This document shows positions 1 to 30,023 of a DNA stretch of 30,023 nucleotides, piece by piece. Each line of letters starts with the position of its first letter. Positions within the stretch are counted from its first letter, which is position 1. Both the position numbers and the translations under genes were made by a program. The stretch is from a virus (Duplodnaviria > Heunggongvirae > Uroviricota > Caudoviricetes): IMG/VR virus record IMGVR_UViG_2690316318_000018, positions 1 to 30,023 of that record; one strand, 5' to 3'. Below the pieces are notes generated by a model. It made no database searches and was not told the origin of the DNA. It worked only from the letters and a program-made list of their open reading frames with translations.

Positions 1-603
1 ATGGATAACGCCATATTAAATAGCGAGATTATCGCCACCAAAGCAGGGAATATTACAGTGTATAACTATGATAGTGAAACCCGGGAATATATTTCCACTT
101 CAAATGAATATCTTGCTGTTGGCGTCGGTATCCCTGCATATTCCTGTTTAGATGCCCCTGGCACACATAAGGCGGGTTATGCTATCTGCCGTTCGATAGA
201 TTTAAACTCATGGGAATATGTGCCGGACCATCGCGGTGAAATTGTCTATAACACCGAAACGGGAGATGCCAAAGAAATCACAGCACCGGGCGACTATCCC
301 GAAAATACAACCACTATCGCCCCGTTAACGCCATACGATGAATGGGATGGTAAGAAATGGGTGACGGATACCGAGGCACAGCATAGCGCCGCAGTAGACG
401 CGGCAGAAGCACAGCGCCAGTCACTGATTGATGCAGCAATGGCTTCCATCAGTCTGATTCAACTGAAATTGCAGGCCGGACGTAAACTGACGCAGGCAGA
501 AACAACCAGACTTAACGCTGTGCTGGATTACATTGACGCGGTGACGGCAACAGATACCAGCACCGCGCCGGATGTCATCTGGCCTGAACTGCCGGAGGCG
601 TAG
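1..603 (+). CDS. Tail fibre assembly protein (Tfa/gpG family), copy G1', convergent with the gene at 575..1027
   Basis: 200-aa ORF. About 95% identical over its first ~153 residues to the minus-strand ORF at 2391..2924, then carries a full C-terminal segment (…DVIWPELPEA) of the kind shared by Tfa chaperones. Starts exactly at the window edge. Confidence 0.8.
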   Translation: MDNAILNSEIIATKAGNITVYNYDSETREYISTSNEYLAVGVGIPAYSCLDAPGTHKAGYAICRSIDLNSWEYVPDHRGEIVYNTETGDAKEITAPGDYPENTTTIAPLTPYDEWDGKKWVTDTEAQHSAAVDAAEAQRQSLIDAAMASISLIQLKLQAGRKLTQAETTRLNAVLDYIDAVTATDTSTAPDVIWPELPEA

Positions 604-1027
604 GCCATTCAATATCTGGTGCACCGGAAGTATCGATCAGCTCCAGTGCGTCCAGATAATCCAGCCACAAATTATATTGCGCCAGTTCATCACCTTTCAG
701 ACGACCAATAGCGGCTTTGCCGGGCCATTGCTTACTGTTCATGTATTCGTTGGCCTGGTTAATTAGTAGCTGTCTTTCTGATTCAGTAATTTCAATAAGT
801 TCTTCATGCGTGGGTGGAGGAATATCTGCCCACGCAGGCAGCCCATCACCTCCGGCAATACGGATTTTTCCTTGTGGCGGTTCAGCCATAAATTCACTGA
901 TAATATTTTGATTCACCTCTTTAGCATCTGATAAATCCCATCCCTCTGATTTATATTTATCAATCATATCCACAGGGAAAAAAGCATTATGCCTTGCGCT
1001 ATAAACATATTCGTTCATATAAATCAC
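575..1027 (-). CDS. Tail fibre assembly protein (Tfa family), alternative copy G2
   Basis: 150-aa ORF directly downstream of the alternative tail-fibre C-terminal domain. C-terminal segment (…LWLDYLDALELIDTSGAPDIEWPTPP) parallels that of the 1..603 product. Overlaps 1..603 tail-to-tail by 29 nt. Confidence 0.75.
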   Translation of the reverse strand: MIYMNEYVYSARHNAFFPVDMIDKYKSEGWDLSDAKEVNQNIISEFMAEPPQGKIRIAGGDGLPAWADIPPPTHEELIEITESERQLLINQANEYMNSKQWPGKAAIGRLKGDELAQYNLWLDYLDALELIDTSGAPDIEWPTPPAVQAR

Positions 1028-1038
1028 CCTTAATAAAA

Positions 1039-2427
1039 TTACTCACCAACAGCCCACCAACTGTAATTCATCGATACTGTGGAACTGGTTGATGCAGTTC
1101 TGTAAGCGGAATTAAAACCGGTTAATGTTGGACCTTCTGCGGTCATCACGAATCCCCGTCCAGCACCTAAAGGTGCACCACCATCACCAGAATGGGTAAG
1201 CATGGCGCAGTCCACTTTTTTAGGAAAAGGGATGCTGAATGTAATTCTCATTGTTTGCGTCGATAATGTCGGCGTAATCGCACCACGACCATATTGCAGG
1301 ATTTTCCCGTTGGGTAATTTCATCCATCCATCACCACTGGCAAAAGAAGCCATATCCGGTATCTGATTTTCCCCTGTTCCCACATCCCGTTTTGCCGCTT
1401 CTCCCAAACCAAGGTAATCAAGAACTCCCTGAGTGCTGGTTTTACCAAGAATGGCACGTCCAACACTTGTCAACGCGGTTAACGCGGCACGATCTGCCCC
1501 TGTAAAATATGGGAGTTTATCTGCTGATGTAGCAAGCTCCGCCAGCGCCGTCAGGGTGGCATCCTTCGGTTGCTTACCCGCAAGCGCGTTAGTCATGGTG
1601 GTCGCAAAATTCGGGTCATTGCCCAGCGCCGCAGCCAGTTCGTTCAGCGTGTTCAGTGCATCAGGTGACGAATCTACAAGTGCGGCAATCGCGGCCATAA
1701 CGAAAGCCGTGCTTGCGATCTGGGTACTATTAGTCCCCTGTGGCGCTGTTGGTGTTGTTGGCGTTCCGGTCAGTGCCGGGCTGTTTAATGGTGCTTTCTT
1801 GTTCGTTTCATCCATTACCGCCTTAACAGCTTTTGGTGTCGCTGCCAGCGTTTCAGACGTGCTGTTCGTGGCGCTACTGAGCTGAACAATCCCTTTTTGT
1901 GTAGTGGTGGCGTTCTGGGCGGTATATTTCCCGTTAGCCAGGTCATATGCAGCCTTAACCGCTTTCGGTGTTGCGGCCAGTGTTTCTGATTCACTGTTAA
2001 TTGCACTGCTTAACTGAGTAAAACCTTTTACGGTCAGCGAGGCGTCCGGGTGACGTCGTGATTGTTCGTGCTCTGATATTTTATCATCCACATATTTGCG
2101 GGTTGCCAGAACCACAGACGGGTCGATTTTCAGCGTGATGGCTTCGGTGTTCGTGACAACCAGAATCATGCGGATAGTCTGTGTGCGTCCACTGCCTTCC
2201 TGCAACTGCGGTTTGTACGTTTCCGGGCAGTTTGCCACCGCAATGAGTACACCTTCATCATCATAAAGACCAATCTCACGGATCCAGAATCCTCCCTCGT
2301 TTTCAGGGATGATTTGCTCCGCAATAATCTGGCTCTGATTGTTAGGGTCAACACTCAGAAGATTCAGCGGTGCAATGCGTTTCTGGTTAATCAGTTTTGT
2401 TTGTGCAGGGTCTGGTGTTGGTAACAC
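1039..2427 (-). CDS. Tail fibre protein, N-terminally truncated duplicate of H with an alternative C-terminal (receptor-binding) domain
   Basis: 462-aa ORF. Its first ~343 residues are identical to residues ~38-380 of the 541-aa H product. After the shared …VLDYLGLGE it continues with a different ~120-residue C-terminus. The track start is GTG at 2427, which is a Val codon in full-length H; independent translation is uncertain. Confidence 0.6.
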   Translation of the reverse strand: MLPTPDPAQTKLINQKRIAPLNLLSVDPNNQSQIIAEQIIPENEGGFWIREIGLYDDEGVLIAVANCPETYKPQLQEGSGRTQTIRMILVVTNTEAITLKIDPSVVLATRKYVDDKISEHEQSRRHPDASLTVKGFTQLSSAINSESETLAATPKAVKAAYDLANGKYTAQNATTTQKGIVQLSSATNSTSETLAATPKAVKAVMDETNKKAPLNSPALTGTPTTPTAPQGTNSTQIASTAFVMAAIAALVDSSPDALNTLNELAAALGNDPNFATTMTNALAGKQPKDATLTALAELATSADKLPYFTGADRAALTALTSVGRAILGKTSTQGVLDYLGLGEAAKRDVGTGENQIPDMASFASGDGWMKLPNGKILQYGRGAITPTLSTQTMRITFSIPFPKKVDCAMLTHSGDGGAPLGAGRGFVMTAEGPTLTGFNSAYRTASTSSTVSMNYSWWAVGE

Positions 2428-2433
2428 ACCATT
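1398..2433. repeat. Direct repeat copy A (1036 bp) of the tail-fibre H constant region
   Basis: Identical by eye to 3403..4438 at an offset of 2005 bp. The embedded antisense ORFs 1433..1885, 1815..2006 and 2166..2354 have translations identical to 3438..3890, 3820..4011 and 4171..4359. Boundaries read directly from mismatches at 1397/3402 and 2434/4439. Confidence 0.85.
1399..1424. other. Putative Hin/Gin/Cin-family serine-invertase crossover site (26 bp, imperfect dyad around a central AA)
   Basis: Plus-strand sequence TTCTCCCAAACC-AA-GGTAATCAAGAA. The half-sites are an imperfect inverted repeat and closely resemble hix/gix/cix sites as I recall them (e.g. hixL TTCTTGAAAACCAAGGTTTTTGATAA). 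It lies exactly at the constant/variable junction of the tail-fibre reading frame, where it encodes VLDYLGLGE. Confidence 0.6.
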
Positions 2434-2924
2434 ATCAACTTCCGTCCGGCCTGCAATTTCAGTTGAATCAGACTAATGGAAGCCATTGCAGTATCAATCA
2501 GTGACTGACGTTGTGCTTCTGCCGCGTCTACTGCGGCGCTATGCTGTGCCTCGGTATCCGTCACCCATTTCTCACCATCCCATTTATCGTATGGCGTTAA
2601 CGGGGCGATAGTGGTTGTTTTTTCGGGGTAATCACCCGGAGTTGTGATTTCTTTGGCGTCTCCCGTTTCGGTGTTATAGACGATTTCACCGCGATGGTCT
2701 GGCACATATTCCCATGAGTTTAAATCCATCGAACGGCAGATAGCATAACCCGCCTTATGTGTGCCAGGGGCATCTAAACAGGAATATGCAGGGATACCGA
2801 CGCCAACAGCAAGATATTCATTTGAAGTGGAAATATATTCTCGAGTTTCACCATCATAGTTATAGACGGTAATATTCCCTGCTTTGGTGGCGATAATCTC
2901 GCTATTTAATATGGCGTTATCCAT
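2391..2924 (-). CDS. G: Tail fibre assembly protein (Tfa/gpG family), copy G1, C-terminus replaced at a duplication junction
   Basis: 177-aa ORF immediately downstream of H. About 95% identical to the 1..603 product through …QLKLQAGRK, then reads 19 unrelated residues (LIMVCYQHQTLHKQN…) into the duplicated H segment; the nucleotide junction is at ~2434-2442. Confidence 0.7.
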   Translation of the reverse strand: MDNAILNSEIIATKAGNITVYNYDGETREYISTSNEYLAVGVGIPAYSCLDAPGTHKAGYAICRSMDLNSWEYVPDHRGEIVYNTETGDAKEITTPGDYPEKTTTIAPLTPYDKWDGEKWVTDTEAQHSAAVDAAEAQRQSLIDTAMASISLIQLKLQAGRKLIMVCYQHQTLHKQN

Positions 2925-4549
2925 TATGCAGCCCTCACAATATAGTTAAATGCAATATTCCTTGGTCGAACCCTAAAACCAGCCCCTGCGCCTGCTCCAG
3001 TTGGTGGCAATTCGATAGAGGGGTATGCTGTTGCAGGGGAATATAAACCTTCACGGGAATCATAATCAGTCGTCATATAGTTAGACGTATTATCAGAAAC
3101 AGTTTCTGTCGGTCTGGTAACCAGACGATAAGAGCCAGTGGTTGGTGACCTGACCAGACCAAAACTTTCAACCAGAGTAGCTTTTTGAAAGCTTAATAAT
3201 CCCCGACCACTGTCAGCTCCGCGCCCATCATCCCAGCCACGAATAAACTCACCGCGTAAATCAGGCAGTTTATTTGTCGGATAAGCCTTTGCCAGTTTAG
3301 GATATTCAACGGCAGAAAATGCCGCACCGTTGCATTTCAGCCAGCCTGTTGGCGGAGTGGCGGAAGGCCACGGAACAGGCACACCCGCGGGTAATGCCGA
3401 ACCTTCTCCCAAACCAAGGTAATCAAGAACTCCCTGAGTGCTGGTTTTACCAAGAATGGCACGTCCAACACTTGTCAACGCGGTTAACGCGGCACGATCT
3501 GCCCCTGTAAAATATGGGAGTTTATCTGCTGATGTAGCAAGCTCCGCCAGCGCCGTCAGGGTGGCATCCTTCGGTTGCTTACCCGCAAGCGCGTTAGTCA
3601 TGGTGGTCGCAAAATTCGGGTCATTGCCCAGCGCCGCAGCCAGTTCGTTCAGCGTGTTCAGTGCATCAGGTGACGAATCTACAAGTGCGGCAATCGCGGC
3701 CATAACGAAAGCCGTGCTTGCGATCTGGGTACTATTAGTCCCCTGTGGCGCTGTTGGTGTTGTTGGCGTTCCGGTCAGTGCCGGGCTGTTTAATGGTGCT
3801 TTCTTGTTCGTTTCATCCATTACCGCCTTAACAGCTTTTGGTGTCGCTGCCAGCGTTTCAGACGTGCTGTTCGTGGCGCTACTGAGCTGAACAATCCCTT
3901 TTTGTGTAGTGGTGGCGTTCTGGGCGGTATATTTCCCGTTAGCCAGGTCATATGCAGCCTTAACCGCTTTCGGTGTTGCGGCCAGTGTTTCTGATTCACT
4001 GTTAATTGCACTGCTTAACTGAGTAAAACCTTTTACGGTCAGCGAGGCGTCCGGGTGACGTCGTGATTGTTCGTGCTCTGATATTTTATCATCCACATAT
4101 TTGCGGGTTGCCAGAACCACAGACGGGTCGATTTTCAGCGTGATGGCTTCGGTGTTCGTGACAACCAGAATCATGCGGATAGTCTGTGTGCGTCCACTGC
4201 CTTCCTGCAACTGCGGTTTGTACGTTTCCGGGCAGTTTGCCACCGCAATGAGTACACCTTCATCATCATAAAGACCAATCTCACGGATCCAGAATCCTCC
4301 CTCGTTTTCAGGGATGATTTGCTCCGCAATAATCTGGCTCTGATTGTTAGGGTCAACACTCAGAAGATTCAGCGGTGCAATGCGTTTCTGGTTAATCAGT
4401 TTTGTTTGTGCAGGGTCTGGTGTTGGTAACACACCATTTGCATCACCAACGGCCATTTGCGTCAGATTCAGCTTACTGCCGAGCATCGTCGCGTTAGCCA
4501 GTCGTGCTGCGCCCTGATTAGTCAGAATGGCGTAGTATTTCACTGTCAT
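2924..4549 (-). CDS. H: Tail fibre protein H (full length, C-terminal variant 1)
   Basis: 541-aa ORF at the P2 gene H position, downstream of I. Thr/Ala/Ser-rich central region with repeated …TQLSSA.NSESETLAATPKAVKA… motifs typical of myovirus tail fibres. Confidence 0.85.
   Translation of the reverse strand: MTVKYYAILTNQGAARLANATMLGSKLNLTQMAVGDANGVLPTPDPAQTKLINQKRIAPLNLLSVDPNNQSQIIAEQIIPENEGGFWIREIGLYDDEGVLIAVANCPETYKPQLQEGSGRTQTIRMILVVTNTEAITLKIDPSVVLATRKYVDDKISEHEQSRRHPDASLTVKGFTQLSSAINSESETLAATPKAVKAAYDLANGKYTAQNATTTQKGIVQLSSATNSTSETLAATPKAVKAVMDETNKKAPLNSPALTGTPTTPTAPQGTNSTQIASTAFVMAAIAALVDSSPDALNTLNELAAALGNDPNFATTMTNALAGKQPKDATLTALAELATSADKLPYFTGADRAALTALTSVGRAILGKTSTQGVLDYLGLGEGSALPAGVPVPWPSATPPTGWLKCNGAAFSAVEYPKLAKAYPTNKLPDLRGEFIRGWDDGRGADSGRGLLSFQKATLVESFGLVRSPTTGSYRLVTRPTETVSDNTSNYMTTDYDSREGLYSPATAYPSIELPPTGAGAGAGFRVRPRNIAFNYIVRAA
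3403..4438. repeat. Direct repeat copy B (1036 bp) of the tail-fibre H constant region
   Basis: See copy A; same orientation, offset 2005 bp. Confidence 0.85.
3404..3429. other. Putative Hin/Gin/Cin-family crossover site, second identical copy in direct orientation
   Basis: Same 26-bp sequence as 1399..1424, at the constant/variable junction of full-length H. Confidence 0.6.
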
Positions 4550-5187
4550 GCGTTTACTCTCAGGTTATCAATTAAATGAATGGCCGGGGCCGGGAAATAA
4601 TCCCCTTCGACAACAATGGACTCCGGGGTGTAGGGATAAACCGTCAGGGCGTCGCCGTAATAGCATCCCGTACCAACGAAAATCTTTCCGTTCACACTCA
4701 GACTGATCGCCAGCCCTGTCAGATGGCGACTTACTGGTTTTGCATCCGCAATAAGGCGCTCAAGTTCCTGATACATTTCATCGGTGATGCCCTGATCAAG
4801 TACTCCGACAACAATGCGAAATGTTCCAGGCTCCTCATTGAGTTGCCACCACTCCTTTACTTCAATCAGGTAGCCGAGAGGCTCCACGGCTCTTCGCAGT
4901 GCGCTGATGGTCCCTTTGTGTCGGTGTATCAGCCATGCATCACGAATCACCTGTCGCTTTGTCTCTTCCGGCCAGTTGCGATCCCAGCGGTCAACGGAAA
5001 ATGCCCAGGCGAGATAAGGCAGCAGATGCACCGGGCAGGTGTCCGGCGACCACAGCGTGTTGAGGTTTACCGGAATGTCTGTAATGCGCGTTCCGACAGC
5101 TTCGGCACAATGCATGAAATTGCTGGCTGATGGCGGTAACAGTGAATTACTCATTACGCCCACCTTCGCTGATGGTGAATGACTCAC
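4546..5187 (-). CDS. I: Baseplate assembly protein I
   Basis: 213-aa ORF between J and H, overlapping both by 4 nt (coupled); position and size fit P2 gpI. Confidence 0.8.
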   Translation of the reverse strand: MSHSPSAKVGVMSNSLLPPSASNFMHCAEAVGTRITDIPVNLNTLWSPDTCPVHLLPYLAWAFSVDRWDRNWPEETKRQVIRDAWLIHRHKGTISALRRAVEPLGYLIEVKEWWQLNEEPGTFRIVVGVLDQGITDEMYQELERLIADAKPVSRHLTGLAISLSVNGKIFVGTGCYYGDALTVYPYTPESIVVEGDYFPAPAIHLIDNLRVNA

Positions 5188-6043
5188 AGCGCGCCGCCTG
5201 TATGTCGCTGATGGCCATATTTTGTGTGGGTTCGATTATCTCCACGCGTTGCACACCGTGCACATGCAGTGCGGCAGCAATGGCTGACAACGCCACGTCC
5301 TGACCGATAAGCCCCTGCTCAGACAGCCACTTCCTGAACGACGATTCCGCCGCGGCCAGAATAGGTTCGGATTCCGGGCCGGGGTAAAAGTACAGTTTTG
5401 CATTCAGCCGCCATGTCACGATTCTGGCACTCTGTACGGTCAGGCGGTCGGCCACCGGGCGGGTATCCTCTGCATTCAGAACGGCGCGAACGGTATTAAG
5501 CAACGCCTCCGTTGCTGTGCCGTCGCCCTCAGTGGACAGGATGGAAACCGTCACGTTGGCCGGAGACGGGCTGATGGCCCGCGCATCGCGTACCAGACCG
5601 CTGGCGCTGCGTGCAAAATACTCGTATGCACCTGACGGGCCAGCAACACTCAGACCGTCATATGCCCGTTGCGCCCGTAGTCTCAGCGAGGTGTCACTTT
5701 CCATCACTGCGTCGGTGGTATCCGTTGCCGGAGTGATAACCAGGCGCTTTGTGTTCATATTGCCCGCGAGGTTGTCCAGGTCTGTCCCGGCGCTGTGGCT
5801 TAGCATGCAGGCGCGTGCACCCTCATTGACCCGCTGGCGTAACAGCATTTCACGAAAAGACATGGTTTGAGCGATAACGTTCAGGGGTTCCGATTCCAGC
5901 TTCAGCGCGGCGGAGACGGCTTCACGCTGTTCGGCAGGATAGGACGCAATTATCATGGCCTTTGTGTCAGCCAGAATTGCCTCAAAATCAGGCTCCGCGA
6001 TGATGGCGGGTTCCGGTAACTGGGAAAGGTCAACAGCAGGCAC
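5147..6043 (-). CDS. J: Baseplate protein J
   Basis: 298-aa ORF at the P2 gpJ position, between W and I; size matches. Confidence 0.85.
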   Translation of the reverse strand: MPAVDLSQLPEPAIIAEPDFEAILADTKAMIIASYPAEQREAVSAALKLESEPLNVIAQTMSFREMLLRQRVNEGARACMLSHSAGTDLDNLAGNMNTKRLVITPATDTTDAVMESDTSLRLRAQRAYDGLSVAGPSGAYEYFARSASGLVRDARAISPSPANVTVSILSTEGDGTATEALLNTVRAVLNAEDTRPVADRLTVQSARIVTWRLNAKLYFYPGPESEPILAAAESSFRKWLSEQGLIGQDVALSAIAAALHVHGVQRVEIIEPTQNMAISDIQAARCESFTISEGGRNE

Positions 6044-8067: not shown

Positions 8068-8374
8068 GGTTGTTATCCTCGTTGTTCAGTCGTTGCAGCC
8101 TGCGCTGTTCCAGTAATTCAATGGCCCGTTTATCCGCGTTACAGGTTTCAAGTGCATCCAGAAGGCGATCGCCCCATATACCGAGATTTCCCCATGTGGG
8201 AGTATCAGGGAAGGGGGGAGGCATTACCGGTATGGTCAGCGTCTGCGGTATAAGCCGGACTGACGGCGCTGGCCGTGGCGCGTTCTGCGTGCCTGCGCAA
8301 CCTGTCAGTAAAACGAGCGTCAGGCAAAGCGTGGGCGCATTCATCTTTTGCAATATCGTTGCGTAGCTGTTCAC
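8054..8374 (-). CDS. lysC: Outer-membrane lipoprotein spanin (LysC/Rz1-like), overlapping the 3' end of the i-spanin gene in another frame
   Basis: 106-aa ORF with signal peptide plus lipobox (…LTLVLLTGCAG…), proline-rich, embedded in and extending beyond the LysB ORF as in P2 lysB/lysC. The true start may be the internal Met (MNAPTL…). Confidence 0.7.
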   Translation of the reverse strand: MNSYATILQKMNAPTLCLTLVLLTGCAGTQNAPRPAPSVRLIPQTLTIPVMPPPFPDTPTWGNLGIWGDRLLDALETCNADKRAIELLEQRRLQRLNNEDNNHAEN

Positions 8375-9534: not shown

Positions 9535-9735
9535 CTACTCCCCCCACAACTGAATCATTTCTCGTTTCTTCTTCTCTGGCTCCGGCATCTCCACTTCCTG
9601 CCCGGCGTCCAGAAATACCTGCTGACAGAGTCCGGGGTTGGCATCCAGCACCTTTTCGGTGACGCCCTGCGTCATGCCGTAGTACCGGAAACAGAGCGAA
9701 TCCACGGTGTCGCCTTCCAGTGCCTTCACTTTCAT
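9535..9735 (-). CDS. X: Tail protein X (LysM-like)
   Basis: Internal start MKVKALEGDTVDSLCFRYYGMTQGVTEKVLDANPGL… gives a 66-aa product matching the P2 gpX pattern (…GDTLD..C.RYYG.T.GVVE.VL.ANPGL…). Confidence 0.8.
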   Translation of the reverse strand: MKVKALEGDTVDSLCFRYYGMTQGVTEKVLDANPGLCQQVFLDAGQEVEMPEPEKKKREMIQLWGE

Positions 9736-16544: not shown

Positions 16545-18749
16545 TTACGTGTCGAGAGAAATTTGTGTGCGCAGTTGAATAGGATTCAGAATTGTATATC
16601 GCTGGCGAATAACATTATATAAATCAAAGTCTTTTACCCTTACGCTTATTACCATCGCATATTGCATATCAGGGGCTGAAACTCCCTTAACATGGCGCGA
16701 AGAATCTCGGGCATGATACCGTATATCAAAAACTGGATCGCTTAATAATGTATCAGCACTGAACTTTTTGCTTCTGTGCAAACAAGTTTCCCACTTATGA
16801 CCTTCACTCCTACACTCCCTTTCAGTCTTATACTGGCTTTTTTGACCAAAGAAATCATCTGTATCGGTATCGTCAAGGCCGAATCTTGGGCGGAAAGTTA
16901 CCTGCATACCGGCCCTTGTATAGTTTACTGAATGTTCAGGATCTACTGGGGTTTGAATGCATAAAGTAGCGGTAAGCTCAAATGCTTCGTCAAAGGGAAC
17001 ATCAGGGAATGGGATCGGTGCCCTTAAATATTTATTTTTTGCTAATGAACCATAGTAAATTACTGTAGCAGTATCATTTGGACAATCGATTAAAACGTTA
17101 GGATCCTCACTAAACCGTCCCCAACCGATATGTTCACGCGAATATTTTCTTGATGTTTCAGCATGATGAACAAGCAACGCTTTCAATGCAATGGTGTTCA
17201 ATGGAGTTCCTGATAGAGCCGCAACTCCAGCGGCCGTTCTCAATGCTAATGGAGAGGCATAACTGGTTCCTTGAACTCCAACTATAGAACCAAGCAGAGG
17301 GTTGTAAGTGTAAAAAGGCTCGTCGTCGCTTCCACCAAAAATAACACCATCAGGTTTAACGAATCCGGGGCTTCTGCCTGGCCCAATACAGCTATATGGT
17401 GCCCGCCCCCATTTTTCACCGCTACGATCAGCAGCACCAATCGCTAGCGCGTTTACCATATCGGAAGGAGGTTGTATTCTCGCTGCATCACCGTCCTCAT
17501 TGCCATCATTCCCAACAGCAACAGTAAGTAATATCCCATGCTTAGCACAGATTTGGTCTAAAACAGCAGTCCATACATGAACCTCATCATCACCAATTGG
17601 AAGATGAGGACCAATACTTAGATTAGCGAACTTATAGTCACCACTATCAAGAACGGACTGTATTTTCTTAAGGACATCAAATAAATCCCAATTGCCATTG
17701 TCACCTGATGTCGGTGAAAGAACTCTATAATGATCTACATTCATAAACGGTCTTTTAAAAGAAGGTGCATTTTCCTCGACACGTCCGAATAAGAAAGTGG
17801 ATGTCACTTCATTACCGTGCTGCAATAATAATCCGCTTGTTTCTTTGGTGTCTGGATACACGTATTCCGTAACCCAATTACTCAAGTCAGCTGTCCCCAA
17901 GCCACCATCAAAAATGGCAATACGTTCGGATTCAAGAACAGCTTTAGAATTAGGGAGCTCCGGTGTAACTATATTAGATAACTTTCTGACAATGTTCGGC
18001 TGAGTACACCTGAGAGACGGCATCGGCCGCACAACGCGGATTAATGAAAAATCGAGTGTTTTTTTCATATCTTCAGGTCGCGCGTGTGCAACGATGAAAG
18101 TCAGCCCACCAACTTGGATTCTACTTTTGTAATCAACAGAGACATCATATTGTGCCGCATAGCTAATATAGGCTTTAACGATATCATCGTCTTCAACCCC
18201 AGCATGAAGAACCACTTCAAATTTTATCAAATCACTTTTCGCATGCTCAAAATTGCGTGCTCTCTCTTTTCCTTCAAAAAAGCTAACACTTTCAATTTCG
18301 ATCAAATCCTTTTGTACGCCCTTCGGAGCTGTAGGGGAATTTAAAATTTCCTTAAATCTTATAACGGCATCATCATCACCGCTAACAAACAGTTGCGCCG
18401 TTACTAAGTCCTTATTCTGATCGCACTGACGTGCCGCTTTCCGTGGGCGAATGATTACCTGACGGCTGCCGACATCCCGTAAACCTGTCGCTCTAAGCAA
18501 TCCTTCCGGAAAGTAGCTTTTACCCAAAAACGCTGGGTGTAAAGTTAAATTGAATACACTCTCCCCCCTTGGCTTAGCCGCATCATCCAAACTGCGAAAG
18601 CGTGAGAGTAAAGTATCAATCTCTGGGTTTAAATGCTCCCTTACTTCTTCAAGAGTATAGGGATAGCGCTTACCATCCCTTCCTTTAGGCAAAGGTTCCT
18701 TTTTTGTCAGAACATGACCGTTACCTAAAAGTAAGTTCCTTTCCATCAT
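16545..18749 (-). CDS. Subtilisin-like serine protease (peptidase S8 family) with ~270-aa N-terminal and ~230-aa C-terminal domains of unknown function
   Basis: 734-aa ORF. S8 catalytic motifs in canonical D-H-N-S order: …RIAIFDGGLG… (Asp ~281), …LLQHGNEVTS… (His ~311), …VAVGNDGNE… (oxyanion Asn ~414), …GVQGTSYASP… (Ser ~496). Start overlaps the upstream ATPase stop (ATGA). AT-rich codon usage. Confidence 0.85.
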   Translation of the reverse strand: MMERNLLLGNGHVLTKKEPLPKGRDGKRYPYTLEEVREHLNPEIDTLLSRFRSLDDAAKPRGESVFNLTLHPAFLGKSYFPEGLLRATGLRDVGSRQVIIRPRKAARQCDQNKDLVTAQLFVSGDDDAVIRFKEILNSPTAPKGVQKDLIEIESVSFFEGKERARNFEHAKSDLIKFEVVLHAGVEDDDIVKAYISYAAQYDVSVDYKSRIQVGGLTFIVAHARPEDMKKTLDFSLIRVVRPMPSLRCTQPNIVRKLSNIVTPELPNSKAVLESERIAIFDGGLGTADLSNWVTEYVYPDTKETSGLLLQHGNEVTSTFLFGRVEENAPSFKRPFMNVDHYRVLSPTSGDNGNWDLFDVLKKIQSVLDSGDYKFANLSIGPHLPIGDDEVHVWTAVLDQICAKHGILLTVAVGNDGNEDGDAARIQPPSDMVNALAIGAADRSGEKWGRAPYSCIGPGRSPGFVKPDGVIFGGSDDEPFYTYNPLLGSIVGVQGTSYASPLALRTAAGVAALSGTPLNTIALKALLVHHAETSRKYSREHIGWGRFSEDPNVLIDCPNDTATVIYYGSLAKNKYLRAPIPFPDVPFDEAFELTATLCIQTPVDPEHSVNYTRAGMQVTFRPRFGLDDTDTDDFFGQKSQYKTERECRSEGHKWETCLHRSKKFSADTLLSDPVFDIRYHARDSSRHVKGVSAPDMQYAMVISVRVKDFDLYNVIRQRYTILNPIQLRTQISLDT

Positions 18750-19828
18750 TTAATCCCCCACTTTTGTAATTTATTCGCGATTGTTGGATGTGAAACACCA
18801 ACTAATTCAGCTATCTTCCTATTTGAAAAACCGTCAAAATGATATTTAATTATATTGAGATCATTATCGCTAAACTCATCCAATGAAACCCTCTCCGTAA
18901 TTACGGCTTCTATTAATGAGCTTTCAAATGGAATATTTCTAAGTACCTCATTCTTTTTGGAGAAATTCAAAATACGGTTAATGATGGCAAAGGACATGCC
19001 ATCTAATAATGGTGCAAGTTTTTTAGATAGTTCAGGTTCAATATTATGATTGACTAAATATCTATCTATCAGTTCTACTGATGGCATATTAAATTTAAGG
19101 ATGTGCTCAAATCGACGCCAAACAGCCGGATCTAAGATATCAGGGTGATTAGTCGCAGCAACAAGAAGCGAGGTCGCTGGCCACTCATCTATGGTCTGTA
19201 GGAGTACAGTAACTAAACGTTTTAATTCTCCAACGTCCCTGTCATCATCACGTCTTTTTGCAACAGCATCAAATTCATCAAGCAAAAGGACACATGGTTT
19301 CTCTTTGGCATAATCCATAACGGATTTAATATTATTACCTGTTTTTCCCAAAAGAGAACTCATTACAGATGAGAGATCCAATGTTAAAAGAGGTAAATTT
19401 AACTTTGCAGCAAGCCAATGTGCGGACATTGTTTTGCCTACGCCTGGCGGGCCAGAAAGTAAAACCGTCTTCACAGGTTCAAGACCAGCTTTGAACAAAG
19501 AAACCGCATTCTCTCTTTCGTTAACAATTGACTCCAGCTTCTTTGAGATATCCGTATTCCATACAGGTTCTTCAACAATTGCGTTGACAGATGTTTCCTG
19601 CAAAAGGTTTCGTCTGGAGTCTCCATCCACAGGCATAGGAGCCTTACTAGATGCCCCACGTAATACTGTTCCCTCAGCAACTAACGAAGCCAGCTTAGAA
19701 GCTAAAGCCTCATCATTTTTACGGATGTTGTTAATCATCTTTCTGCATAGGAGTGTAAATGCATTTGCGTTGCCTTTGATGCCTTGCTCGATGAGTTTGA
19801 AAAGTTCATCCTCCCTCACGTTTACCAT
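18746..19828 (-). CDS. Classic-clade AAA ATPase with predicted C-terminal helix-turn-helix
   Basis: 360-aa ORF. Walker A LSGPPGVGKT (~126-133), Walker B VLLLDEFD (~180-187), second region of homology …LLVAATNHPDILDPAVWRRFEH… (sensor-1 Asn, Arg fingers). C-terminal segment …SNRKIAELVGVSHPTIANKLQKWG… resembles a LuxR / sigma-70 region-4 type HTH. Confidence 0.85.
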   Translation of the reverse strand: MVNVREDELFKLIEQGIKGNANAFTLLCRKMINNIRKNDEALASKLASLVAEGTVLRGASSKAPMPVDGDSRRNLLQETSVNAIVEEPVWNTDISKKLESIVNERENAVSLFKAGLEPVKTVLLSGPPGVGKTMSAHWLAAKLNLPLLTLDLSSVMSSLLGKTGNNIKSVMDYAKEKPCVLLLDEFDAVAKRRDDDRDVGELKRLVTVLLQTIDEWPATSLLVAATNHPDILDPAVWRRFEHILKFNMPSVELIDRYLVNHNIEPELSKKLAPLLDGMSFAIINRILNFSKKNEVLRNIPFESSLIEAVITERVSLDEFSDNDLNIIKYHFDGFSNRKIAELVGVSHPTIANKLQKWGIK

Positions 19829-27643: not shown

Positions 27644-27955
27644 ATGTCAAGTGGGTACGAAAAAAAACTGAAAGAGATACGGAAAAGTGAAGGGTTAACT
27701 CAAGCTGAGTTTGCAGATGTTACTGGGATAAATCTCGGAACTATAAAGAATTATGAGAGCGGTAAAAGAGAGGTTGGTTTAAGCGTTGTTGATCGCGTAA
27801 TTAATTCTAAGGATTTCGAAAAATACACTATATGGCTTATGACGGGAAAAACAAATGAGGCTGCTGGGCAGATCAGTCCCTCTCTCTCCCCTGATGGGCC
27901 AGAAAACACATCGTCTTCTCAAAAATCCCGCAAGACTGGTACACAGCCCGGCTAA
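27644..27955 (+). CDS. C: Immunity repressor C (P2 C-type HTH repressor)
   Basis: 103-aa ORF. …RKSEGLTQAEFADVTGINLGTIKNYESGKR…KYTIWLMTGKT…GQISPSL… parallels P2 C (…RKSEYLSRQQLADLTGVPYGTLSYYESGRS…KYTLWFMTNQ…GQIAPAL…) as recalled. Confidence 0.85.
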   Translation: MSSGYEKKLKEIRKSEGLTQAEFADVTGINLGTIKNYESGKREVGLSVVDRVINSKDFEKYTIWLMTGKTNEAAGQISPSLSPDGPENTSSSQKSRKTGTQPG

Positions 27956-28004
27956 TCATGGAACGCTGGGGGCATGGTGGTCTTGTAACGCTGGGGTTTC
28001 ACGA

Positions 28005-28982
28005 ATGAGCATAAAATCAATTCCGGGAGGGTATCTTCTTGACATGCGCCCGGAGGGGCGTAAAGGCAAACGCATTCGTAAAAAATTTAAAACGAAATCG
28101 GATGCAGTTTTATATGAGCGGTGGGTGCTGGCGCAACAGCATAACAATGAGTGGAAAGGAAACTCTATTGATCGCCGTCCTCTGTCAGTGCTTATTGACT
28201 TGTGGTGGAAATACCACGGCCAGCTAATGAAGTCAGGGCATAACACGCGCCTTAAATTGCTGCGCTTGAGTGAGGCAATGGATGACCCGTGCGTGCATAA
28301 ACTTAATACAACGATGCTCACCGAGCTACGTGTGTCCAGGATAGAGCAGGGGATACAGCCCAGCACCATAAATCGAGAGATTGGGGCGTTAAGCGCGATG
28401 TTTACCGCACTCATCTCATCCGGCCATTTTCTTAACGATAACCCCGTTCAAGGCCTTAAAGGAATGAAGGTTAACGAGCGCGAAATGGGATACCTGAGTA
28501 AGTCTGAATGTGTTCAGTTGCTGGATGCACTGGCTGAAAATCCCGATGAACGGCTGGCTGTCGAAATCCTTCTGTCGACCGGGGCGCGATGGGGCGAGGT
28601 AGCGGCACTGGAGCAGCGCCGTGTTCTTCATTGTCGAATCACTTTTTCAAAAACGAAGAACAGTAAAAACCGCACTGTCCCGATCTCCGAAAATCTGTTT
28701 GAAAAGATCAAAAAACGGGGCGGGAAACTAGTGTTTCCAACGCTGGATTATCCATTGGTTCGCGATGTCATCAAAACGGTCGCACCTGATGTTCCTGACG
28801 GCCAGGCTGTTCATGCGCTGCGCCACACCTTCGCCAGTCATTTCATGATGAACGGCGGTAATATTCTGACGCTCCAGAAAATTCTGGGGCACGCAAAGAT
28901 TCAGACAACGATGATTTATGCCCATCTTGCGCCGGATTACCTGCAGGATGCGGTGAGGTTTAATCCCTTGGGAGGAATGTAA
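28005..28982 (+). CDS. int: Tyrosine integrase (P2 Int family)
   Basis: The track ORF is overextended; ATG at 28005 gives 325 aa. C-terminal catalytic motifs …HALRHTFASHF… and …LGHAKIQTTMIYAHL… (R…HxxR…Y). Confidence 0.9.
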   Translation: MSIKSIPGGYLLDMRPEGRKGKRIRKKFKTKSDAVLYERWVLAQQHNNEWKGNSIDRRPLSVLIDLWWKYHGQLMKSGHNTRLKLLRLSEAMDDPCVHKLNTTMLTELRVSRIEQGIQPSTINREIGALSAMFTALISSGHFLNDNPVQGLKGMKVNEREMGYLSKSECVQLLDALAENPDERLAVEILLSTGARWGEVAALEQRRVLHCRITFSKTKNSKNRTVPISENLFEKIKKRGGKLVFPTLDYPLVRDVIKTVAPDVPDGQAVHALRHTFASHFMMNGGNILTLQKILGHAKIQTTMIYAHLAPDYLQDAVRFNPLGGM

Positions 28983-28984
28983 CT

Positions 28985-29485
28985 ATGGAAATAAAAAAAC
29001 CTACAAAAAAAGAGTTATATGACTATTTACTATCGAAATATATAGAAGATAAATGCAAAGAAGAAGCTGATGAAATCAATAAGAAGTCGATGAGTCGTGT
29101 CAATAAACATAAGGAGCGGCTGATGGAGATTACGCCAGAAATCTTCTTCCGTTTCTTGTCTGAGAAGGAGGTTTCCAGTGTCTGCCCTTCATGTGGATCG
29201 TCTCGATTATCTGTGCCTGAAAGTATGGATCTTTGCTGGGATAAAAATAAGAAACCAGAAAATTTTAACAATCTACCCTTGGAGGAGCAGAGTGAGTTAA
29301 TTAAAGAGAACATAAAGCATTATGTATCTTATACTTTTTTGGGTGATGTTAAGAGCATACCTGATATGCGCAAAACTTATTACACGCTGCATTGCCTGAA
29401 TTGTGGTTACCTGAGCCTTTACCGTACGTCTGCGGTGCTGAAGTGGTTGGAGAAAGACAAAGCACAGGATGGTGAAAATGGGTAA
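28985..29485 (+). CDS. Hypothetical Lys-rich protein with two Cys pairs (possible zinc ribbon), AT-rich cargo
   Basis: 166-aa ORF starting 3 nt after the int stop; CPSCGS … CLNCGY; strongly AT-rich codon usage unlike the phage backbone. Confidence 0.55.
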   Translation: MEIKKPTKKELYDYLLSKYIEDKCKEEADEINKKSMSRVNKHKERLMEITPEIFFRFLSEKEVSSVCPSCGSSRLSVPESMDLCWDKNKKPENFNNLPLEEQSELIKENIKHYVSYTFLGDVKSIPDMRKTYYTLHCLNCGYLSLYRTSAVLKWLEKDKAQDGENG

Positions 29486-30023
29486 TGTAGCAAGAAACCT
29501 GTTCGGTAATTCAGCAGGTAGTATGTCGCATTCTGAGCGTGATGTGCTTTATCATGGCGGCGATGGCGGCAGTAGTGGAGGTGGAATGTCAGATAAACTT
29601 GAAAGGCGAATTGAGCGACTCGAAAGTGATTTATCGCTAACAAGAAACGACCTTGCGACGCTTGCTGAACGCACTACAAACCTCTCAACCAAAGCCGATG
29701 TTGGTGAGGTGAAGGGTGAGCTCAAAGCAGACATTGCTCATCTGAAAGGTGAGCTTGAATGCGATATTGCGAATCTGAAAGGTGAGCTTAAATCTGATAC
29801 AGCTAATCTGAAAGAGCAGCTCAAATCAGACATTAACAGCCTGAAGGGTGAGCTTACCGAAGCGATGGATAAACGCTTTGACAAGATTATGGATGAGATG
29901 AATCGGCGGTTTGACAAGGTTGATGATAATACGAAGTGGCGTTGGAGTGGCATTATTGTGCCAGTGTGCACAACCATTTTCACGGCGGCGGTCGCGTATT
30001 TTGTTGCTAAATTTGTTGGCTGA
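29469..30023 (+). CDS. Hypothetical tail-anchored coiled-coil membrane protein with five tandem 11-residue repeats
   Basis: 184-aa ORF overlapping the upstream ORF by 17 nt. Gly/Ser-rich linker, then repeats …VGEVKGELKAD / IAHLKGELECD / IANLKGELKSD / TANLKEQLKSD / INSLKGELTEA…, then a single C-terminal TM helix (WSGIIVPVCTTIFTAAVAYFVAKFV). Ends at the window edge. Confidence 0.55.
   Translation: MVKMGNVARNLFGNSAGSMSHSERDVLYHGGDGGSSGGGMSDKLERRIERLESDLSLTRNDLATLAERTTNLSTKADVGEVKGELKADIAHLKGELECDIANLKGELKSDTANLKEQLKSDINSLKGELTEAMDKRFDKIMDEMNRRFDKVDDNTKWRWSGIIVPVCTTIFTAAVAYFVAKFVG

Follow-up and report, generated by a model that had tools for sequence, protein, structure and literature searches.

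On a draft contig of Escherichia albertii, the tail-fibre locus of a prophage was found with both states of its fibre switch in tandem, Hc-Hv1-tfa1 followed by Hc-Hv2-tfa2, where Hc is the constant part of the tail fibre gene H, Hv1 and Hv2 are its variable tips and tfa1 and tfa2 encode the cognate assembly chaperones. The two units share a perfect 1036-bp repeat, their sequence stems from two parents, and they meet at a junction that is unique to this contig. The tandem goes back to a one-off rearrangement or else to an error of assembly. Judged from the sequence, chances are even that it is a real, strain-specific duplication of 2,005 bp, which would have arisen by a crossover between two related phage genomes.

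Anatomy of the assembled tail-fibre locus

The window, i.e., the whole stretch of 30,023 nucleotides that was analyzed, originates from the draft Escherichia albertii assembly GCA_001286085.1 (contig CYCK01000006.1, 203,629 bp). In the one paper, and its preprint, that cite this accession, it serves solely as an outgroup. Only 55 nt of the contig precede window position 1, and they are the inverted end of Hv1, ahead of tfa1b'. It speaks against a real duplication that the tandem H structure is confined to a single draft assembly and lies 4.5 kb from a contig end, which falls inside the inverted Hv1/tfa1 copy. The window DNA matches Peduovirus genomes, an integrase is located at 27855-28982 (Pfam), and along locus L003 the P2 late genes are present in order as Q, P, O, N, M, L, X, lysis genes, R, S, V, W, J, I, H and tfa (Pfam families). 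By these features, the E. albertii phage is classed as a P2-like (Peduoviridae) prophage. The following features were identified:

4546..5187, minus strand: gpI baseplate/tail protein (Pfam Tail_P2_I), immediately upstream of H; 4546-5154 and 202 aa in the version of the gene caller
2924..4549, minus strand: full-length tail fibre gene H of 541 aa, consisting of 37 N-terminal codons, Hc and the Hv1 tip, the 'flipped' fusion state
3403..4438, minus strand: Hc copy 1, H codons 38-383, identical to 1398-2433
3404..3429, minus strand: crossover site P1, proximal, at the Hc/Hv1 boundary, TTCTTGATTACC TT GGTTTGGGAGAA
2925..3402, minus strand: Hv1 variable tip of the Collar type, native to the E. albertii phage
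2435..2924, minus strand: tfa1a*, codons 1-163 of a foreign tail fibre assembly gene of the CI5 type
2434..2434, no strand: junction J, a single T flanked by tfa1a (...AAGTTGA) and by Hc from codon 38 on (AATGGTG...)
1398..2433, minus strand: Hc copy 2, from H codon 38, identical to 3403-4438
1399..1424, minus strand: crossover site P2, proximal-type, at the Hc/Hv2 boundary, in direct orientation relative to P1
1039..2427, minus strand: H' ORF of 462 aa with a GTG start, Hc without the N-terminus fused to the Hv2 tip
1039-1397, minus strand: Hv2 tip, gp53-like C-terminal domain, 359/359 identical to L009 and L002
575..1027, minus strand: tfa2, assembly chaperone cognate to Hv2, Caudo_TAP over its full length, 453/453 identical to L009; 575-1018 and 147 aa in the version of the gene caller
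1..603, plus strand: tfa1b', native full-length tfa1, inverted, Caudo_TAP 1-131, 603/603 identical to L009

The order on the contig is N-Hc-site-Hv1-tfa1a(1-163), the single T, and Hc(38-)-site-Hv2-tfa2-tfa1b'-Hv1'. The initial annotation had described a perfect 1036-bp direct repeat of the H constant region. In a self-comparison of the window, 1398-2433 and 3403-4438 were identical at 1036 of 1036 positions with an offset of 2005 bp, and both flanks diverge at once, with not one further matching base on either side. A chance origin of an exact 1036-nt match is impossible. The repeated region is indeed the constant part of a P2 gpH-type fibre gene. The reported loss of about 37 N-terminal codons in the downstream copy agrees with a second H copy that opens at codon 38; its H' ORF matches Pfam Phage_tail_fib only from profile position 42 of 150, in addition to Gp53-like_C. 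The full-length H matches Phage_tail_fib at 1-150, Phage_fiber_2 and Collar, and the exact 541-aa protein was found on the E. albertii contig only. The upstream tfa gene is cut short by the junction and has lost its authentic C-terminus, as had been stated; its match to Caudo_TAP runs from profile position 1 to 93 only, out of 131, and in the ORF 2391-2924 it is followed by 14 codons of Hc, read out of frame. The identity of the two tfa copies, given before as about 95%, amounts to 94.9% (25 differences in 490 positions, 1-490 on the plus strand against 2435-2924 on the minus strand).

As a further point against a real duplication, usual short-read inserts do not reach across a perfect repeat of 1036 bp, so that the order on its two sides may lack read support.

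The invertase-driven switch and its sister phages

By its organization, the locus is an ordinary tail-fibre switch of the Pin/Gin type, driven by a Din-family serine invertase, and not a new kind of system. The normal switch consists of the constant 5' part of H, a 26-bp crossover site and the invertible segment [Hv2-tfa2 >< tfa1'-Hv1']. Inversion of the segment joins Hc to either of the two tips and activates the cognate chaperone. In the window, Hv2-tfa2 on the minus strand meets tfa1b' on the plus strand with an overlap of 29 nt; the two tips belong to the Collar and Gp53-like_C families, and both chaperones to Caudo_TAP. Since tfa1b' is inverted and lies tail-to-tail with tfa2, it is predicted to be silent in the present orientation.

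Each 1036-bp repeat closes at its 3' edge with the 26-bp crossover site of the invertase. The sequence TTCTCCCAAACC AA GGTAATCAAGAA is present at 1399-1424 and 3404-3429, which makes two exact copies compared with 0 expected from shuffles. The distal site and the invertase gene are absent from the E. albertii contig and are predicted to lie beyond its end. In the sister phage L009, the distal inverted site TTCTCCCAAACC AA CGTTTAAGAAAA was found at 9629-9654, directly after Hv1', so that the locus would comprise three crossover sites, two of them seen in direct orientation and the third predicted from L009. The invertase gene (Resolvase + HTH_7) is located beside the segment in seven loci (L001, L002, L005, L006, L007, L015, and L016). 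In Gin/Hin systems, a Fis-dependent recombinational enhancer lies inside the invertase gene. Furthermore, CEC08123 (L002) and NCCP 14541 (L016) have identical annotated proteins in the tail-fibre region and the adjacent baseplate/tail genes, and they carry the invertible segment in opposite orientations, with the flanks exchanged exactly at TTCTCCCAAACC-AA at both sites. Both orientations are thus demonstrated for sister phages and not for the E. albertii strain.

L009 (assembly GCA_000188875.2) represents the normal single-copy form of the E. albertii phage, with 100% identity throughout I, the H N-terminus, Hc, Hv2, tfa2, tfa1b and Hv1. Hc is 100% identical over the full 1036 bp in six independently assembled loci (L006, L007, L009, L010, L012, and L013) and in L014 at 1015 of 1015 positions up to the contig end, and the sister loci sharing Hc carry different tips. 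The initial annotation had linked the perfect identity to a duplication that is recent or was homogenised by gene conversion. The identity is no evidence for either: because Hc is invariant across the lineage, the perfect identity says nothing on the age of the duplication, whether it is real or an artefact.

The gpI protein recurs unchanged in 44 blocks of the collection, of which 24 contigs were read and 9 places listed. Among the 9 places listed, all but the E. albertii contig show a single H, unless the contig stops within H or shortly behind it.

Junction J and possible origins of the tandem

Junction J had been placed at 2434..2442. This was corrected, as the identity to CI5 tfaE extends up to 2435 and Hc is matched from 2433, which leaves only the T at 2434, matching neither parent. 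The parental sequences at this point are ...TTGACGCAGG for tfa and ...GATGCAAATGG for H, and the junction reads ...GGAAGTTGATAATGGTGTG..., with ...CGGACGGAAGTTGA-T-AATGGTGTGTTACC... around the T. The microhomology comprises at most 3 nt, no crossover-like site was found near the junction, and it coincides with no repeat boundary, the sister phages being all identical across H codon 38. Past codon 163, tfa1a and tfa1b have only about 20 nt in common. An H allele with GAT-AAT-GGT was considered as donor of the T; its 24-mer was found neither in the viral nor in the genome contig collection, and the T is therefore treated as untemplated.

The junction 28-mer was absent in an exact search of the viral, species-representative genome and metagenome contig collections, a 120-nt junction query had no match in 5,426 complete E. 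coli genomes, and the tandem structure is absent from the phage collection as well. The 177-aa chimeric protein (tfa1a* plus the Hc tail) is not on record. With a 56-aa junction-spanning peptide no protein with the junction tail was found, in a database which is clustered at 90% identity and hence uninformative here.

Two different haplotypes meet in the first unit of the tandem. Its Hv1 is native, with 478 of 478 positions identical to the inverted Hv1' of L009 and 20 differences to CI5, all in coding positions 14-224. Its tfa1a is foreign, being identical to E. coli CI5 tfaE at 490 of 490 positions with 25 mismatches to the native tfa1b at 1-490. The change from the native to the foreign haplotype falls within a 310-nt Hv1/tfa1 stretch common to both. 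The CI5-type tfaE is common in Escherichia (383 contigs); a partner phage combining the native Hv1 with a CI5-type tfa1 was not found anywhere. A simple tandem duplication, as suggested by the initial annotation, is excluded, as the truncated tfa1 is a 100% match to CI5 tfaE and differs from the native tfa1 2 kb away at the 25 positions. An in-situ tandem duplication with subsequent inversion was also rejected, since the truncated tfa1 allele is not that of the segment and runs right up to the junction.

The reading we prefer is that two closely related phage genomes in one cell underwent a single non-homologous (illegitimate) crossover. One parent would have been in the Hv1 state with a CI5-type tfa1, the other would have been the native phage in the Hv2 state. 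A crossover between siblings with an invariant Hc would explain why a perfect repeat lies beside tfa copies with 95% identity. From the assembled sequence we infer that the genome itself contains the junction and the units in tandem order, and all functional consequences are likewise inferred. The full-length H would give Hv1-tipped fibres with a chaperone lacking its last 37 residues, and the second H copy, without the N-terminal attachment region, may be a cassette that stays silent. As the two proximal sites are direct and the single distal one would be inverted, either intact tip-chaperone pair could still be placed behind the full-length Hc by two inversions in succession, and RecA-dependent recombination between the 1036-bp repeats would lead back to the normal phage.

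The haplotype switch in the first unit lies exactly where an assembler would change paths, an observation that speaks against a real duplication.

An assembly artefact from mixed locus states had been named by the initial annotation as well. The artefact as such is still live, but one segment present in both orientations had to be rejected as a simple explanation, since the foreign tfa1 allele and the tfa1-to-Hc junction are missing from both states. A more elaborate version has a considerable probability, somewhat short of even. It assumes a single-copy switch, probably in mixed orientations, and a second tfaE-type locus; three repeats (Hc, the 310-nt Hv1/tfa1 stretch and the inverted segment) would have been threaded into a false cycle and Hc written twice, with the junction coming from the other locus, a minority of molecules or chimeric reads. 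In line with this, the contig stops exactly 111 nt past the last base separating tfa1b from tfa1a, like a de Bruijn unitig, and the MEGAHIT k141 contig L012 stops exactly 141 nt past the last difference between the native and the CI5-type Hv1. Draft contigs of sister phages (L010-L014) often break in the tail-fibre region, and the Logan contig L013 breaks off 1 nt beyond the crossover site, showing that mixed states break assemblies. Both halves of the first unit are 100% identical to natural haplotypes and are joined in a shared repeat, a graph edge walked twice yields identical copies by construction, and the structure occurs in no other genome. However, graph assemblers mis-join at shared k-mers, and junction J has none; since a de Bruijn graph is unable to invent such a join, reads must have carried it. 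The junction is also physically linked to the foreign tfa1a by three distinguishing bases at most 8 nt away, and a real junction demands a second Hc copy somewhere in any model. Two separate mis-threadings would be required, with the junction still unexplained. Given the junction, the deposited order is the sole linear arrangement that uses each unique piece once.

It is very improbable that the junction derives from a 2,005-bp circle or a subpopulation, excised when the Hc copies recombine homologously or formed as a by-product of replication, with the normal phage in the main chromosome. By reasoning, a circle of the form [Hc(38-)-Hv1-tfa1a(1-163)] would have the same k-mer content as the tandem, and an alternative pairing of the four Hc borders would give the normal phage and a closed cycle. 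Such a circle, however, has no replication origin, needs the tandem as its parent anyway as well as the foreign tfa1a allele, and would escape the assembler's pruning of low-coverage edges only at sufficient abundance.

A duplication made by the invertase itself, at quasi crossover sites in tfa1 and H, is effectively refuted. Low-frequency use of quasi-sites is known for Din-family invertases (Cin/cixQ). A half-site scan of positions 1-6000 with at least 16 of 24 matches nevertheless returned the two true sites only and nothing near 2434, 4438 or tfa codon 163. Moreover, the junction has an untemplated base, and serine recombinases make a 2-bp staggered cut and add no bases.

For the preferred crossover, the locus would be a case of illegitimate recombination between sibling prophages caught in the act of enlarging the cassette set of a host-range switch run by an invertase. 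An artefact, in turn, would serve as a warning that invertible tail-fibre regions of prophages routinely break or tangle short-read assemblies, and that a perfect repeat near a contig end there should be taken for biology only when supported by reads. An unlikely extension is that the tandem is both real and usable: it would then be a three-site switch with the promoter-less truncated H as stored cassette, in which sequential inversions give more than two fibre/chaperone combinations, and a snapshot of the birth of a multi-cassette locus via a non-homologous crossover of sibling phages.

Comparison with known fibre switches

Multi-site fibre switches are already known, and the locus, if real, would therefore be of modest interest for phage mosaicism. 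It resembles the Mu G segment/Gin, the P1 C segment/Cin and the e14 P segment/Pin in the constant 5' fibre part outside the segment, the two 3' tips with their own chaperones arranged tail-to-tail inside it, and the 26-bp sites with TTCTCCCAAACC half-sites and an AA core. Also shared are the adjacent resolvase-family invertase, as seen in the sister loci, and the occurrence of both orientations in otherwise identical phages. It differs from these systems by the second, truncated constant part with its own proximal site as a direct repeat. The P2-like prophages of E. coli with a single-copy invertible H/tfa locus (pro483, CI5, CEC08123, and NCCP 14541) and L009 have the same order V-W-J-I-H-tfa, but only one H, and the E. 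albertii contig contains an additional 2,005 bp (Hv1-tfa1a*-T-Hc).

The Min system of plasmid p15B is a multi-site inversion module. For a P2-like prophage of EPEC E2348/69, three inverted repeats and four coexisting variants have been described (PMC4272514). If the E. albertii structure is real, it would be similar to both in that three sites lead to several isomers and to more than two fibre/chaperone combinations. However, the EPEC E2348/69 locus and the p15B Min system multiply only sites and variable cassettes, whereas on the E. albertii contig 1 kb of the constant region is doubled, two sites are direct, and the units are joined by a non-homologous junction that truncates a chaperone gene instead of a designed-looking cassette boundary.

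Tail-fibre region and its direct repeat

The window carries a P2-like prophage with terminase, portal, capsid and lysis genes, followed by R, S, V, W, J and I and then the fibre region, and the integrase is located close to the opposite window end. Five elements were found downstream of gpI and are listed in this order, on the minus strand unless stated.

2924-4549 (-): H, 541 aa, 37 N-terminal codons, the constant region Hc and the Hv1 tip with a Collar domain
2391-2924 (-): tfa1a*, 163 codons of a tail-fibre assembly gene and 14 out-of-frame codons
1039-2427 (-): H', 462 aa, Hc from codon 38 and the Hv2 tip with a gp53-like domain
575-1027 (-): tfa2, the chaperone cognate to Hv2
1-603 (+): tfa1b', a complete tfa1 on the strand opposite to tfa2

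Both truncations are reflected in the Pfam matches. The fibre profile (150 positions) is matched by H' from position 42, and tfa1a* covers only positions 1-93 of 131 in the Caudo_TAP profile.

As the initial annotation had described, positions 1398-2433 and 3403-4438 form an exact direct repeat of 1036 nt with an offset of 2005 bp; no base matches beyond either edge. An inverted repeat (1-490 versus 2435-2924) shows 25 mismatches (94.9% identity). A recent duplication had been put forward as one of several origins of the direct repeat, but its perfection is uninformative about age, since Hc is invariant in sister loci with different tips and since a graph edge walked twice yields identical copies by construction. 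In separate assemblies, several of them with different tips, Hc is 1036/1036 identical (L006, L007, L009, L010, L012, L013) or identical as far as the contig end (L014, 1015/1015).

Two further regions of the prophage were annotated. Between the portal/terminase and replication genes, a two-gene cargo (16545-19828, -) encodes an AAA ATPase of 360 aa and an S8 subtilase of 734 aa. The models of the anti-phage defence system IetAS are matched by this pair, IetA at 3.6e-89 and IetS at 6.6e-41, and the prophage therefore bears a defence cassette. Beyond the integrase, an ORF of 184 aa (29469-30023, +) has coiled-coil heptads with a recurring LKGEL, and its C-terminal end is hydrophobic; its Pfam matches are weak and coiled-coil only.

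Invertase switch and relatives of the first unit

The sequence TTCTTGATTACCTTGGTTTGGGAGAA, which forms the 3' end of both repeat copies (1399-1424 and 3404-3429), is a Pin/Gin-type 26-bp crossover site. In the related prophages pro483, CI5, CEC08123, JP538 and NCCP 14541, a single H gene is followed by the segment [Hv2-tfa2 >< tfa1'-Hv1'] or its flipped form, behind which lie the distal site TTCTCCCAAACC AA CGTTTAAGAAAA and a resolvase-family invertase gene. CEC08123 and NCCP 14541 have identical annotated proteins in the tail-fibre region and in the neighbouring baseplate and tail genes, whereas their segments are oppositely oriented, with the flanks swapped precisely at the crossover sites. 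The window therefore holds a well-known host-range switch.

In five loci of this lineage, H and the tail block are on opposite strands, and the tail block is convergent with the invertase gene. This block is visible as a whole in L002 (1-4808; sheath, tube, E, tape measure, U) and by its tape-measure and U end only in L006 (10260-12609), L007 (10321-12609), L015 (1-2420) and L016 (1-2380). In P2, pro483 and CI5 (L001, L005), by contrast, it follows H on the same strand. The difference may reflect either a large inversion that became fixed or an arrangement of a separate lineage.

The same phage in its normal form was found in GCA_000188875.2 (L009), whose 501-aa H is present on 68 contigs. The gpI gene, H N-terminus, Hc, Hv2, tfa2 and tfa1b are 100% identical to the window, and its inverted Hv1' matches the window Hv1 at 478/478 positions. 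The sole difference is the extra 2,005 bp, and nothing in these is foreign apart from tfa1a* and the junction. The tfa1a* sequence agrees with tfaE from the CI5 prophage of E. coli at 490/490 positions, while Hc of CI5 shows only ~74% identity to that of the window. The region 2435-3100 is 100% identical to CI5-type prophages, and the 5' part of Hv1 is of the native type, with its 20 differences from CI5 all lying at coding positions 14-224. Unit 1 (Hc-Hv1-tfa1a*) therefore has a native side and a CI5-type side, and the change between them falls within a 310-nt stretch that both types share.

A simple tandem duplication with subsequent inversion can be ruled out, because tfa1 of unit 1 should then equal that of the segment, yet it is a different natural allele up to the junction. 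Nor can the contig be a mere mix of the two orientations, as the foreign allele and the junction occur in neither state.

In many tfaE-type loci of E. coli, the match to the window is confined to the final 44-45 nt of the tip gene and what follows (query positions 1-534; window 2968-2979, 1-56). The boundary between tip and chaperone thus appears to be a conserved module junction at which one tip is exchanged for another.

Junction, contig end and origin of the tandem

The coding-strand junction reads ...CGGACGGAAGTTGA-T-AATGGTGTG..., so that the novel join comprises one base and not several, as had been annotated. The parental tfa continues with CGCAGG and H has GCA ahead of AATGG; homology is at most 3 nt, and the T is unmatched in either parent. 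No H allele able to supply it was found in the viral or genome collections, and no crossover-like site near the junction. The junction is missing from viral, genome and metagenome contigs, the phage collection and 5,426 complete E. coli genomes. It coincides with no repeat boundary, and a k-mer graph could not create it because its two sides share no k-mer; very probably it is present in the reads. If it is real, a second Hc copy must exist, and given the junction, the deposited order is the sole linear one in which no unique piece is left out or repeated.

Exact protein matches assign the window to contig CYCK01000006.1 (203,629 bp) of GCA_001286085.1, a draft Escherichia albertii assembly. 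This contig terminates 55 nt before window position 1. These 55 nt are an inverted copy of 2925-2979, which puts the stop exactly 111 nt beyond the last base separating tfa1b from tfa1a. This is the pattern of a de Bruijn-graph contig meeting a repeat, as is supported by a MEGAHIT k141 control (L012, ENA k141_20713, end at 8117), which stops exactly 141 nt past the last Hv1-type-distinguishing base. Sister-phage contigs often terminate within the fibre-switch region, and the Logan contig L013 (SRR19732777, 7726-7752) ends 1 nt beyond the crossover site. L012 and L013 both break off precisely where the graph branches. Co-resident fibre alleles or mixed switch states therefore seem to be common in sequenced samples. 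The window starts with the A of an ATG and ends with a stop codon (30023); it looks trimmed at gene boundaries, and the invertase gene, distal site, Hv1' and tail genes therefore lie outside both window and contig.

This contig end falls inside a repeat close to the tandem, which would fit an assembler mis-threading a tangle of Hc, the 310-nt common stretch and the invertible segment, with the junction taken from another locus or a minority of molecules. The tandem was found in this contig only, the repeat exceeds typical short-read inserts and the haplotype switches exactly within the common stretch, but the junction offers no homology for mis-joining and lies at most 8 nt from foreign-allele bases. 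We regard such an artefact as a serious possibility, somewhat short of an even chance. We prefer, at about an even chance, the reading that the tandem really exists and arose in this strain alone, by a single non-homologous crossover between the genomes of two related phages. One parent, in the Hv1 state, would have contributed a CI5-type tfa1; the second would have been the native phage, in the Hv2 state.

Predicted consequences and known switches

With this arrangement, fibres would bear the Hv1 tip together with a truncated chaperone, and the truncated H' would be silent beside an intact tfa2. With two proximal sites in direct orientation and a single inverted site distally, two inversions in succession could move either of the intact tip-chaperone pairs to the position behind the full-length Hc. 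Deletion between direct sites is disfavoured for Gin/Hin-type invertases. The normal form of L009 would be restored if the two repeats recombined in a RecA-dependent manner.

The duplication occurs once, may or may not be real, and does not represent a conserved architecture. The fibre-switch biology is ordinary: the P2-like prophage carries an invertase switch of a known kind. Host-range switches are documented in such prophages, and that of EPEC E2348/69 is a form of this known type with three repeats and four variants (PMC4272514).
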